From Eledone cirrhosa (lineage: Eukaryota), in assembly GCA_964016885.1 (NCBI GenBank), contig OZ024742.1, forward strand, positions 304,792,001-304,856,000: a DNA stretch of 64,000 nt, written 5' to 3'. The position numbers and the translations under genes were made by a program. Positions 16,650-46,822 of the stretch are shown in pieces (the stretch's first letter is position 1; each line of letters starts with the position of its first letter). Under the pieces are notes generated by a model. The model made no database searches. It was given only the letters and a program-made list of their open reading frames with translations, and was not told the origin of the DNA.

Positions 16650-17004
16650 CAATGATATTAAATAAATGGAAACTATATTTGTAAAACCATATATATTCTA
16701 TTATATATATTTCAAGGGTACCAACAATTTTGGTACGCTATCATCAGATAAAATACGAAGTGTTTTATAACTATTTGACATGACCAAGGATAACATATGT
16801 TAACGGTTCAAGTTATCCCTGGATAAGATTTCCAGGGATAACTTGAACCGTTAACGTATATTATCCTTGGTCATGTCAGATATTTATAAAACACTTCGTA
16901 TTTTATCTGATGATAGCGTACCAAAATTGTTGGTACCCTTGAAATATATATAATAGAATAAATATTTTTTTATAAATATAGTTTCCATTTATTTAATATC
17001 ATTG
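16650..17004. mobile_element. Foldback HHR element, family C (174-bp arms, 7-nt spacer), (TA)n-flanked
   Basis: Arms 16650-16823 and 16831-17004 are near-perfect reverse complements; TA repeats lie at both ends. Confidence 0.9.
16899..16960 (+). ncRNA. Type I hammerhead ribozyme, family C (mirror copy on the minus strand at 16694-16755)
   Basis: TATTTTAT-CTGATGA-TAGCGTACCAAAATTGTTGGTACCCTT-GAAA-TATATA-TA-ATAGAATA: 8-bp stem I, stem II GTACCAA/TTGGTAC, palindromic loop III. Confidence 0.85.
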
Positions 17005-17054
17005 TATATATATATATATATAGAGAGAGAGAGGGGGGGGGGGGGGGGGGGGGG

Positions 17055-17146
17055 TAAGAGTCAGGACCCCGACGGCTGAACTCCGGCTGTTTCGACAGCT
17101 AGATTCAAACTAACCCACCAGTATTAGAACGGTGGGAATCTAGCTG
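17055..17146 (-). mobile_element. Diverged family F cassette with a short internal inversion
   Basis: Minus strand TAGCTGTCGAAACAGCCGGAGTTCAGCCGTCGGGGTC resembles 19508-19543; contains a CAGCTAGATTC...GAATCTAGCTG inverted repeat. Confidence 0.45.
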
Positions 17147-18959
17147 AACTTATCAAGAGGTACAGTCCATATATGGGCATGCAGTCAACACAAAAAAAAA
17201 CCCAGAAATATCAAAGCAAATAATTCTAAAGATGTGTTGTTTTTTTTTGTCTATCACGGGGAGTGGTCAATAACTTGGGATGTCGTGTACATGGTTAGAT
17301 TCCTTCATAGCGGCGGGATGCTGAACTGGCCTGTAGAACAAATGGGCACCGAATGCAATCGTGAATACACATACAGCATGTTTCTACAAATATCCCATGT
17401 TATCCATCCACTCACGAGACAGACAGGGGAGTATCGCCAGATGTCGTCATTTTTCCAGTTTTCTTTTTTTTTACATTTTCTCCACTATCACCACACAACA
17501 TCTAATACATCATATCCCAGAATTCAATGCTTTATTTTATTTCCTTATATCTGCTCTTCTTGCTTTATTCATATTCATCGCTCTCATTAAACTTCCTCTC
17601 TCTTTGACTTTCTCTTTTTCACTTTACTTTCTCACTCTAGAGCTCATCCTTTACACTTTGGTTTTTTTCCCCTCCTCACCTTATTCATTTTAATATCTCT
17701 CCCTCTAGCACTACCGCTCCTCTCCACATTCTATCTACTTTATTTTTATCTAACTTCCACATATTATCGTTACACCTTTCTTATTACTATCCTCTATTTT
17801 ATTTACTCACACTCTCTTCATTCCCGATCTCTTCACCTAAGTTCCCTTCTCACAAGTAACAAAATTATTTTGCTACATTCTCTCTTCTTTTTTATCTCTT
17901 TCACTTACCTACTCCTTTTCTTTGTTTCATTCTCTCTCTCTCTCTCTCTCTCTCTCTCTCTCTCTCTCTCTCTCTCTCTCTCTCTCTCTCTCTCCCCCTC
18001 TCTCTTTCTCTCCCTCTCTCTCTCTCTCTCTCTCTCTCTCTCTAGCTCATTCTATTTCCAAACCCCTCTTTCCCGCGTCCTCTTTCCTATGCTTTCTTTC
18101 GTTCTCAAAATACCTTTTTCTTCTCTTTCTTACTCACTCTCTCTGTTTCATACTCTTTTTCCTATTCTCTCTTTCTTTTTCATAAACCTTATCTTCTCTT
18201 TCCTTTTATCTCTTTATCTCATACTCTCTCTCGCTCTCACTTTCATTCTCTCTCTTTCTCCTTCTTTCATTCATTTTCTTACACCACCTACGCTATTACA
18301 TTCTTCCTCAACACCTTTATTTCCCGCGCCACTACACCTTCAATTCTTTCACACGTATCTCCCCTCTCACGCCACAATTCTCCTCCCCCCATACTCTTCC
18401 TACCACATCCCTCACTCCCCCTCCCACCTCTCAACATAACATAGCTAACCAATCTGGCTTCATCTGATAGTGATGTCAGTGTTTATTAGGTGGGCTGTTA
18501 AGACTAATCCGCCTTCATTAAGATATTGTCGTAGTCCAGAACGTGGGATTTACTTGATGACGATCTTGTCAAAATCTAAGAGCAGGGATTAGGATGCATG
18601 GCCAAACATTGTCATCGCTGTATTCACACATGGGTGTTGCTTAACACCCTCCTCCATACTATGCTACACCAAAAGCACATACATTACAAAACCTACATAC
18701 ACAACCTAAATACAAACTTAAATACACACCAACACTTCTTCATCCTTACCATACCACCAAATATTTCTCTACAGTTTTCTGTTGTTAGTTTTTATCATAC
18801 ATTTTTTTATAACCTTTCATTTAGTTGTTTTCATTCTCTGTATGTCATGTGATTGCTCTCAACCCTGACATCTTTTTATTTATCTAATCATCTATCTATA
18901 TCTCTAATGCTTACTGTCACTTCTTTCTAAATTCCTTTATTTAAGCTCTCTCGTTTATG

Positions 18960-19240
18960 AATACATACACACACAGCCACACACACAAACACACACACAC
19001 ACAGCCACACACAGCCACACACAGCCACACACACAAACACACACACACATAGCCACACACAGCCACACACAGCCACACAAACAGCCACACAAACAGTCAC
19101 ACAAACAGCCAGACACACACACACACACACACACACACACACACACACACACACACACACACACACACACACACACACACACACAGCCACACACAGCCAC
19201 ACAAACAAACAGCCATACACACACACAGCCACACAAACAT
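18960..19240. repeat. Compound (CACACAGCCA)n/(CA)n minisatellite
   Basis: Repeated CAGCCACACA units. Confidence 0.9.
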
Positions 19241-19450
19241 ATATGAAGATATATTTCGAAGTTTCGCCAATACTTGTTTCTCAGAACATCGTTTTGATAA
19301 TCCAGCTTAGAGGAAGCTTCAACGAATATACCGAATATAGAAAATATATATTAGATTTACAATGCAATATGTAAAATGGCATTTAGTCAATTCATGTTTA
19401 GGAAACCTATGTGCGCTGACCTATAAAAAAGTGATCATATATATATATAT

Positions 19451-19628
19451 ATGGGAACATGTTTAACGCCGACGGCAGAGCTCAAGCCGTTTCGACGGCT
19501 ATTTCCTTCGAAACGGCTTGAGTTCTGCCGTCGGGTTAAACATTTTCTTGTTACCCACTCTACTACCCTAAGTATCGAGTACTCTGGTGCGTTATGGTCC
19601 ATCTGGTTTCTTACCACACCTCCTTCGT
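19451..19628. mobile_element. Family F foldback cassette, (TA)n-flanked
   Basis: Arms ~19459-19495 and 19508-19543 plus a 3' tail ending ACCTCCTTCGTTA(TA)n. Homologous to 36527-36670 and 44637-44850. Confidence 0.85.
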
Positions 19629-19919
19629 TATATATATATATATATATATATATATATATATATATATATATATATATATGTATAGGAAGGGTCACTTCAC
19701 TCAGGCAATACTAAATTGCGCGCGAGAGTTGTAATGGAGATAACTGCGAAAGTCCAAAAGTTTCTAGTTGAGTACCTAACTCGTCCCATGGATTGAGCGC
19801 TCTACCACTACGGATATTACCTTCCAGTGTTCTACCACTATATATATATATATATGCTCTATATATATATATATATGCATATGTATATATATGTGTGTGT
19901 GTATATATGTATATTCATA

Positions 19920-44636: not shown

Positions 44637-44850
44637 ATAACGAAGGAGGTGTGGTAAGGAACCAGATGAACCATACCGCACCAGAGTACTCAATACCTAG
44701 GGTAGTAGAGTGGGTAATAGGAAAATGTTTGACACCCCAAGGCAGAGCTCAAGCCGTTTCGACGGCTATTTCTGGACTAAATTGAATTTAGTTCAGAAAT
44801 AGCTGTCGGAACGGCTTGATTGAGCTCTGCCGTCGGGGTGAAACATTTTC
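44637..44850. mobile_element. Family F foldback cassette, (TA)n-flanked
   Basis: Arms 44721-44783 and 44785-44850; tail 44637-44720 is homologous to the other family F copies. Confidence 0.85.
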
Positions 44851-45380
44851 ATATATATATATATATATATATATATATATATATATATATATATATATAT
44901 ATATATATATATATATATATATATATATATATATATATATATATATATATATATATATATATATATATATATATATATATATATATATATATATATATAT
45001 ATATATATATATATATATATATATATATATATATATATATATATATATATATATATATATATATATATATATATATATATATATATATATATATATATAT
45101 ATATATATATATATATATATATATATATATATATATATATATATATATATATATATATATATATATATATATATATATATATATATATATATATATATAT
45201 ATATATATATATATATATATATATATATATATATATATATATATATATATATATATATATATATATATATATATATATATATATATATATATATATATAT
45301 ATATATATATATATATATATATATATATATATATATATATATATATATATATATATATATATATATATATATATATATAT
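44851..45380. repeat. Perfect (TA)n, ~265 units
   Basis: Uninterrupted ~530-bp dinucleotide run. Confidence 0.98.
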
Positions 45381-45842
45381 GTGTGTGTGTGTGTGTGGGC
45401 GCGCGCACACGTGTGTGTGAAAAGTTTAATTCTAAGTGTCTTGCCTCGTGCTATCACGCTAAATCTTTGTCTTCGTTACAATAGTAGTCTCTTTGCAGCA
45501 ATAGTCTTTTTACCAGAAAGGCCAGTATCTTGCTAACATGTATCATAAAATCTAGCAAAAATGTGTGTTGCAACTAACATATTCTCACTTTCCAGCATCT
45601 GTGGATCAACTGATAATTGTTTGTGCTGGTGTTATCTCATTTCCGTACGCAATACATCGCTCTCTCCCACTTTCTCCTTTTCTTGCTCCCCCTCTCTCCC
45701 ATGTATGTGTGTGTTTGTATGTGTATGTGCATCTGGATATGTTTATAATGCTCTTGCACACACACACACACACATACCATATGTAGGTTCTACCAACTCA
45801 ATAAGTTGGTAGAATATAGGTATCTTTATACATAGGAATGAC

Positions 45843-45940
45843 TTCTACAGGACTATAACTGTTTCATTCATATGATTTCATCAGGAATAGAAATTCGAGA
45901 TGATTTCACACGAGGGAAACATATATATTCCTGTAGAAAC
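45843..45940 (-). ncRNA. Family A hammerhead (minus strand, 45843-45887) with a degenerate inverted partner
   Basis: Minus strand TTC-CTGATGA-AATCATATGAAT-GAAA-CAG-ttatagtc-CTG-TA-GAA. Confidence 0.6.
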
Positions 45941-46035
45941 CATCTCTCTCTCTCTCTCTCTCTCTCTCTCTCTCTCTCTATATATATATATATATATATA
46001 TATATATATATAGATATAGATAGATATATATATAT

Positions 46036-46286
46036 AAGCAGAAGGGATATTTAATTTTTTGGTAATTCAACAATTATAAATGTTTATAACTGATTTAGAC
46101 CACTCGACAGTTTTTCTAAGGAAAATTCAACTGATAAGGTATGTTCCTTGGCTATGTCAAAATTTATAAAACACACTCTATATTTTATCTGATGAAAGCG
46201 TACCAAAGCTTTTGATACCCTTGAAATATATATAATAGAATAAATATTGTTTTATAAATATAGTTTCTATTTATTTAATATGATTG
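46036..46286 (+). mobile_element. Family C cassette: inverted tail plus HHR arm (HHR at 46181-46242)
   Basis: TATTTTAT-CTGATGA-AAGCGTACCAAAGCTTTTGATACCCTT-GAAA-TATATA-TA-ATAGAATA; (TA)n on both sides. Confidence 0.85.
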
Positions 46287-46464
46287 TATATATATATATA
46301 GTATTAATTATACTATTGATGGTTATGTAAATACAAAAACCTTATGCAGTTATATGTATTTTTTATATAAACCCTAAATCGTGGTATGCAGTAATGTATT
46401 ACTACCTTATTACCAGTAAGTTAATTAGCTCAATCTAAAAACATCAGATGATTTACAGAGCAGT

Positions 46465-46822
46465 TATATGAAATATAAGAATCAAAGAATTGTTCAAAAC
46501 ATTATTGTGCTTACAGCTGTTTCCTCCAAACCGAGGTTTGGATTCTTTGGAGCAATTTATTAATGAATGGACAGTTATATGACCTCCTTTTCAGCCAAGA
46601 GACATACCGATACATATGCAAATATTGTAGATCAACATTCATTACAGAATTTAGAGTGGCAGTACACACTTCGAGATTACATTCAATATGAATGTAATCT
46701 CGAGGTCATATAACTGTCCATTCATTAATAAATTGCTCCGAAGAATCCAAACCTCCGTTTGGAGGAAACAGCTGTAAGCACAATAATGTTTTGAACAATT
46801 CTTTGATTCTTATATTTCATAT
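46465..46822. mobile_element. Foldback HHR element, family E (~121-bp arms, nested 15-bp hairpin); HHR at 46734-46780 on the plus strand
   Basis: Arms 46465-46586 and 46702-46822. HHR reads TGCT-CCGAAGA-ATCCAAAC-CTCC-GTTTGGAG-GAAA-CAGCTG-TA-AGCA (U4C variant, palindromic loop III). Inner hairpin at 46671-46703. Confidence 0.75.

Follow-up and report, generated by a model that had tools for sequence, protein, structure and literature searches.

Palindromic loops in type I hammerheads of an Eledone cirrhosa genomic stretch and their putative dimer folding

Introduction

Do the palindromic loops of small hammerhead ribozymes allow two copies to cleave as a dimer, and do they form a code by which only like copies would cut each other? 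Both questions are raised by 64,000 nucleotides (nt) of the Eledone cirrhosa genome (GenBank assembly GCA_964016885.1, contig OZ024742.1, positions 304,792,001 to 304,856,000 of the forward strand), hereafter the window. An earlier note, made from the letters of this DNA, had listed six self-complementary hammerhead loops and covarying stems, and had proposed dimeric cleavage and a family-specific loop code. The window is animal-like, with a GC content of 33.6%, and is crowded with microsatellites and short repeats; at least ten hammerhead types and at least seven short palindromic loops lie within it. We consider it likely that these are terminal-repeat type I hammerheads of several Penelope-like families, left as 3′ stubs, that they folded as dimers in the parent element, and that their loops have drifted.

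Double hammerheads were reportedly described by Forster in 1988 for avocado sunblotch viroid and newt satellite RNA, and Lunse, Weinberg and Breaker are said to have described in 2017 small Penelope-like retrotransposon hammerhead variants that cleave as dimers. Judged by its title and by citing reviews, the 2017 work concerns the same class and mechanism, and it may bear on loop specificity. Among the papers cited below, Cervera and de la Pena 2014 (PMC4209133) report a palindromic loop 3, families with compensatory changes, and opposite-strand pairs in Penelope-like elements, and Perreault 2011 (PMC3088659, Fig. S8) gives different palindromes for Schistosoma, Aedes, Nematostella and Xenopus. 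The motifs described here add members to a class described between 2011 and 2017; the palindromic loop III and cleavage as dimers had been published before.

Results

Both strands were scanned for type I hammerheads with a descriptor blind to the loop, which required exact CUGANGA, a domain II no longer than 140 nt, GAAA, 0-19 nt, UH, and five or more contiguous helix I pairs. Full type I anatomy accordingly reads helix I, CUGANGA, domain II, GAAA, loop, UH, helix I. Thirteen cores were recovered in the window, compared to a mean of 0.42 and a maximum of 3 in 300 block-wise local dinucleotide shuffles; they represent 10 insertions, three being duplicated arms or copies. Even-palindrome loops were present in 9/13 of these cores and in 0/125 shuffled matches, and with odd palindromes included the loops were self-complementary in 12/13 cores versus 3/125. 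Reversed and shuffle controls yielded approximately zero hammerheads. Looser runs of the descriptor added the copy at 58050 (helix I broken), the copy at 46738 (core CCGAAGA) and family B, and the Rfam hammerhead model gave no match at its gathering score across the 64-kb stretch. Judged by sequence, the type I hammerheads are real, and they were probably left by Penelope-type elements.

The loop TATATA occurs with full type I anatomy at all four coordinates where the earlier note had placed it. Three copies belong to subfamily C1: 16899-16960 (+), with a predicted cut after 16952; 46181-46242 (+), which has a high copy number in organism A; and 57994-58058 (−), in which the fifth helix I pair is broken. 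Subfamily C2 is found at 33036-33101 (+; predicted cut after 33093). Inverted twins accompany the copies at 16899 (core 16747, −; 189-nt arms at 16635-16823 and 16831-17019, 96% complementary) and 33036 (core 32902, −). TGCGCA, CGATCG and CAGCTG likewise stand in full type I hammerheads where they had been reported (39528, 24555 and 46734). The first of these, subfamily C3 (39528-39598, −), has the helix I of C1 and C2 and a covarying helix II. Family D (24555-24693, +; CGATCG) has a 104-nt domain II and lies in the inverted, 5′-truncated arm 24332-24749 of a Penelope-like copy. Family E (46733-46781, +; CAGCTG) has a 4-bp helix I and the core CCGAAGA, a U4C variant; its inverted twin, within 46465-46586 (−), carries a private core change at 46548.

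For GTAC, the arm cited earlier (36958, core 36962, +) does present this loop in a type I hammerhead, family F, but its helix I is shortened to only 3 pairs; the intact GTAC arm is 36868-36906 (−), whose cleavage triplet ends in U (U17). The sixth listed loop, a partial CAATTG site at 11515, was rejected as a hammerhead: GAAA-CAATTG-TA (11508-11523, −) has no 5′ core half, the CUGANGA half being absent in every descriptor run. GAAA-palindrome-TH alone is found 18 times in the stretch and is expected 3.3 ± 1.8 times by chance (100 shuffles). Of the six loops, five have full type I anatomy; CAATTG at 11515 is within what chance would give. An element of approximately 140 nt (11455-11598) by (TA)n, with imperfect terminal inverted repeats as judged by eye, contains this site.

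The earlier note had missed the loops CTAG, CG (family B) and TAGGTA, the hairpin loops of families I and J, and family K. CTAG belongs to family G (39170-39212, −), which has a 6-bp helix I and a U.U at the helix II base. TAGGTA is the loop of family H (20943-21028, −) and is non-palindromic in this copy owing to one mismatch. Family I (30830-30913, −) has a stable helix III with the odd palindrome CCGA-T-TCGG, and its second copy (core 30424, −) lies on the same strand 484 nt away. Family J (31257-31336, +) has a long stable helix III, TAGTCTT-T-AAGACTA. The odd palindromes of I and J (9 and 15 nt, each with a one-base centre) can be folded as a monomer hairpin or as a dimer, a possible route from obligate dimer to monomer.

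Family B (4674-4709, +) is a minimal hammerhead with a 2-nt CG loop, helix I TCTT/AAGA and one core mismatch; decayed or truncated relatives lie at 10955-10989 (+), 15700 (+) and 57353 (−). The copy spanning 15693-15728 (+) terminates at the predicted cut site, followed by a run of C, and its helix I 3′ strand is missing. Core-bearing copies of family K are found at 3733 (+), 20306 (+) and 45884 (−), with arms at 20274 and 45900 and the loops CAGTTC/CAGTTA. Their core words are intact and helix I was found in neither register; the copies appear truncated just upstream of core position C3.

Would such motifs fold as monomers or as dimers? In a monomer, the pair A15.1-U16.1 can be extended by just one further pair in a 6-nt loop and by none in a 4-nt loop, so the inner four loop bases would be unpaired. 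Among short-loop types, these four bases nevertheless form a palindrome in 6 of 7 (P about 1.3e-6), a count that omits family K for want of an assignable helix I, and in 6 of 8 when K is counted (P about 5e-6). For even palindromes, the computed monomer helix III is at +1.9 to +5.5 kcal/mol versus −8.3 to −16.2 kcal/mol for the shared helix, and computed double hammerheads with 4- and 6-nt palindromes are 12.6-19.9 kcal/mol better than two folded monomers. An unstable monomer helix III together with a palindromic loop is seen in C, C3, D, E, F and G. It is not seen in H, with its one mismatch, in K, or in I and J, where the monomer helix III is stable (−2.5 and −5.3 kcal/mol, respectively). 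The minimum free energy (MFE) fold of the family I monomer is the hammerhead; C1 and C2 monomers are misfolded in theirs. The anatomy, the palindromy of the inner bases and the computed homodimers support well the dimeric folding that the earlier note had proposed and that was already published; on the energy model and the literature, these motifs would fold as double hammerheads.

We next consider covariation. Because MAFFT misaligned domain II of C3, the core served as the anchor for the family C helix II columns in five loci. Two-sided changes occur in 8/11 columns across the three subfamilies, around a conserved pyrimidine mismatch at 10.4. In columns 10.3-10.9, 27/35 cells pair in register, compared to 12-19/35 when the strands are slid. 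Column 10.8 is flagged, being paired in 2/5 loci; the loose-end consensus of 8886 reads restores the pair in the C2 type. C1 and C2 are approximately 77% alike, with compensatory helix II changes and the same loop and helix I. Covariation in family C helix II is real, over two divergent branches and without a significance value. The earlier claim of stem II covariation thus stands, but CATATT/AATATG, one of the three stems cited for it, is shifted by four columns against the register of the other two. In family B, the claimed stem I covariation (TCTT/AAGA at 4674-4709 versus TATT/AATA at 10955-10989) amounts to one two-sided change, and this lies in a copy with a decayed core and helix II; both copies fall outside the span 16899-46780 to which the claim had been assigned.

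Helix I of family C extends past an internal loop, 16880-16906 pairing with 16953-16979 (27 nt, 78% complementary). Such an extension would add to partner specificity.

Does loop III specify the partner? Helix I would be formed across copies, because by the geometry of the fold one copy's GAAA would pair via the loop with the other's U16.1. Contiguous helix I pairs number 0-4 between unrelated families and 4-9 within families; with cross-pairing of just 0-4, unrelated families are separated without the loop. All computed cross-family dimers are unfavourable or lack helix I. Pairing between distinct palindromic hexamers costs no less than 5.5 kcal/mol in 2016/2016 combinations. Of 5000 random sets of four, 14% equal or surpass the observed hexamers in the worst pair and 60% in the mean, a comparison of low power with four loops. 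As every pair is orthogonal and the observed set lies within the random range, orthogonality needs no selection.

The expectation that each family has its own loop does not hold, since C1 and C2 both carry TATATA and family E is polymorphic. The C1 × C2 heterodimer scores −12.6 to −13.6, which is homodimer-like. What remains of the proposed code is the comparison of C1/C2 with C3, in which helix I is unchanged and the loop differs at all four inner bases: these heterodimers score −3.7 to −4.7 versus −12.6 and −19.9. Discrimination by the loop only is predicted by this model for C1/C2 versus C3 alone. In the form that the earlier note had given it, the loop code is unsupported; it appears to be mostly a by-product of palindromy, redundant with helix I.

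Reads and contigs inform family E further. The region 46036-46640 aligned to 5365 contigs (run X1) and 32075 reads (X11), indicating high copy number. Position 46516 is changed in 56% of the contig depth (36 contigs) and in 365/447 reads, the latter being restriction-site-associated DNA (RAD) reads with only 28 start places. This change gives the loop CAGUUG, which still pairs with itself through two G.U pairs; in family E the copy here has CAGCTG, and most others have CAGTTG. The core CCGAAGA is present in both arms. The private change at 46548 is corrected in 1210/1218 reads and 46549 is not among the rows listed, which suggests that U4C is general in this high-copy family. U4C is a weaker natural hammerhead variant (Perreault 2011, PMC3088659). 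For the TATATA loop and its core, no change is found among the 40 rows listed.

No evidence was drawn from the contigs of organisms B and C (21 and 40 short pieces, mostly of low identity). Among those of organism C, one has a CCGAAGA core upstream of a TATATA-type stretch.

From which elements do the hammerheads derive? The 3′ end of a Penelope-like retroelement spans 23073-24329 (−) and comprises the endonuclease C-terminus, the 3′ region and a dead hammerhead D copy (G12 changed). Its open reading frame (ORF) remnant, a Penelope-like GIY-YIG endonuclease C-terminus (24003-24329, −), is assigned by its relatives and its Atlas placement, with no direct Pfam match. A profile-free full scan with the frame 24003-24314 (−) recovered 1880 relatives at E ≤ 0.001 and aligned it to residues 654-755 of a 759-aa protein; a word-indexed protein search found no relatives of greater length. 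In the Atlas, the remnant falls with GIY-YIG fragment clusters (0.93-0.95), and look-alike clusters of the 759-aa protein carry HTH_animal, GIY-YIG and RVT_1. A PDB sequence search with relative P0021 returned nothing useful. A cysteine linker ahead of the C-terminal GIY-YIG is seen in relatives P0021 and P0001, in a region outside the window's remnant; the clade may be Neptune.

The hammerhead D core lies approximately 535 nt beyond the stop of the endonuclease remnant, on the same strand. This copy is broken by a SINE-like (short interspersed nuclear element) insert at 23268-23454 and by the core change; the intact CGATCG motif is in the inverted arm. The insert sits in the first bases of hammerhead D, and its target duplication of approximately 18 nt repeats the core word. 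The same repeat of approximately 190 nt has over ten copies in the stretch and is presumably an octopus SINE. Family D is of Penelope origin. For the other families, from which neither Pfam (146/219 candidate frames) nor tblastn of 150 relatives across the whole stretch recovered a remnant, such an origin is probable.

The layout of the insertions bears on whether the present copies could cut. Five listed loci are inverted pairs, and (TA)4+ lies within 100 nt of the cut site in 12/17 arms versus a 22% background, although arms are not independent. These copies show 5′ truncation, an inverted twin and a microsatellite target; inverted truncated copies and microsatellite targets are known for Penelope-like elements (PMC8557442). 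Close twins occupy opposite strands, a distance of 13-25 kb separates TATATA copies on the same strand, and the sole close direct duplicate is in family I. Most listed copies are thus truncated inverted 3′ stubs at (TA)n and cannot dimerize in cis. They are unlikely to cut, because near twins are opposite-strand and read-through RNA would form a long hairpin.

Discussion

How could these motifs have worked in an active parent? We propose that two same-strand copies in a tandem transcript would come together as a double hammerhead. Their palindromic loops would build a single shared helix III, and each helix I would combine the 5′ strand of one copy with the 3′ strand of the other. Dimers are considered relevant in the tandem parent element (review, PMC6765202). 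Selection would keep only the self-complementarity of the loop, which presumably drifts by paired changes or through G.U intermediates. Differences between families would be a by-product, and specificity would come mostly from helix I and from sharing a transcript. What is left in the window would then be the terminal-repeat ribozymes of several Penelope-like families, as short 3′ stubs at (TA)n that in many cases have an inverted twin.

Several points weigh against this proposal. In vitro, such motifs have low activity even as dimers (PMC4209133), and 1/9 Xenopus retrozyme dimers cleaved (bioRxiv 10.64898/2026.07.22.740005). In the decayed copies at 58050, 21020 and 4678, two misfolded monomers are computed to be more stable than the double hammerhead. 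Most motifs lack the published-consensus G10.1-C11.1 pair. The sole family linked to a protein remnant is D, and Pfam matched neither this remnant nor the 759-aa protein, with sub-threshold GIY-YIG in 2/10 relatives.

Alternatively, the loops could be a selected pairing code, loop III diversifying with helix I so that co-resident families avoid cutting or poisoning each other's RNAs in trans. The unfavourable cross-family dimers, the wholly changed inner loop of C3 on an unchanged helix I, and at least seven short palindromes within 64 kb are consistent with this. However, orthogonality arises without selection, C1 and C2 hold the key in common, and family E is polymorphic. Published families of one genome also share a loop, CG being common to two families each in Lottia, Strongylocentrotus and Xenopus (PMC4209133), and a cis partner on a tandem transcript would make discrimination in trans needless. 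We consider a selected code unlikely. An equally doubtful extension is that helix I and loop III are a two-part self-recognition key, with co-active Penelope-like families selected to change it. That the loop would shift first via G.U intermediates (CAGCUG to CAGUUG), blocking cutting or hijacking by rival or non-autonomous families, is just as improbable. If the two-part key were true, kin discrimination between retroelements would be written in a ribozyme; a demonstrated selected code would be a new kind of retroelement conflict, which the present evidence does not favour.

Mostly monomeric cleavage seems to us slightly less probable than a selected code. Here a helix III of 1-2 bp would suffice with an extended helix I and loop 1-loop 2 contacts, or with a protein, and the palindrome would be a relic or optional. 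Helix III does form in the I and J monomers, helix I of family C does extend beyond the internal loop, and most invertebrate retrozyme hammerheads cleave as monomers (PMC7229834); yet the palindromy of the inner four bases would go unexplained, C1 and C2 monomers misfold, and the minimal Schistosoma motif is inactive as a monomer (PMC4209133). We give very little credence to a DNA-level artefact, in which AT-rich fold-back duplications (template switching) rather than RNA selection created the palindromes and stem changes. Inverted repeats are abundant in the stretch and TATATA resembles the (TA)n background. Against this stand the GC-rich palindromes that unrelated families have in an identical position, the compensatory changes flanking the conserved 10.4 mismatch, and the near-empty shuffle and reversed controls.

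The dimer-folding hammerheads that we favour resemble published ones in many respects. With the Cervera 2014 motifs (PMC4209133) they have in common type I architecture, the conserved core, and a palindromic 15.2-16.2 plus loop 3, as well as many consensus families per genome, mostly single truncated copies, and opposite-strand pairs 100-700 bp apart. Fig. S3 of that paper shows Aedes families with one helix I and the loops UACGCGUA versus UAGGCCUA, a parallel to C1 versus C3 here; it also shows a shrimp motif with A-U at the helix II base and A17, a Drosophila willistoni loop UAGCUA, and a Hydra motif with a hairpin loop. Family B matches the minimal hammerhead ribozyme (min-HHR) of Penelope/Poseidon-type elements (PMC4209133) in its extra base after A9, G10.1-C11.1, 2-nt CG loop and 4-bp helix I. 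Departures from the motifs of Cervera 2014 are that most others here have neither G10.1-C11.1 nor the extra base after A9, that domain II can be as long as 104 nt, and that one family is apparently U4C. With their 4-6 nt loops, the motifs that the earlier note had listed are not minimal in the min-HHR sense.

At the helix II base, G10.1-C11.1 together with a base between A9 and 10.1 is found in family B only; family I has G-C without the extra base, and the rest have A-U, G-U, U.U, C.A or A.G. The U.U mismatch of F, G, H and J also occurs in the axolotl Amex2 retrozyme motif (PMC7229834). Retrozymes (type I hammerheads, non-LTR, that is, without long terminal repeats) are tandem repeats (PMC7229834), whereas here a same-strand duplicate is present only in family I. 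The supplement text searched for Cervera 2014 (file 2 only) names no cephalopods. Double hammerheads of the viroid and newt satellite type have in common with our motifs a shared helix III from palindromic loops; those systems are tandem satellites or viroid multimers, whereas the copies here are dispersed retroelement stubs.

Unusual details of the window are the apparently family-wide U4C core, the 104-nt domain II and the spread of forms, from 2-nt loops to a helix III that is stable in the monomer. In the literature searched, to which Lunse 2017 does not belong, we found no heterodimer or loop-specificity work beyond Cervera 2014. The motifs offer a natural test set for the question of cis versus trans working and of whether the loop or helix I sets the partner. 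The trio C1, C2 and C3, with the same helix I and loops that are the same, the same and different, is especially suited.

Other observations

Elements that are inverted or repeated but have no hammerhead core lie at 19437-19684, 28777-29118, 36472-36750 and 44589-44930. A second Penelope-like ORF remnant, at 1-195 (−), was matched by tblastn (E 1e-9) and contains a stop; no hammerhead accompanies it within the stretch.

As an outside control we searched metagenomes. The strict family C pattern gave 0 loci there, and a relaxed fixed-helix pattern gave 94 loci (65 distinct), almost all chance, with a palindromic loop in 3/65. One metagenome locus (L078, 301-345) is a convincing hammerhead of the same type, with a family C-like helix I, a 6-bp helix II and the loop GAGCTC.

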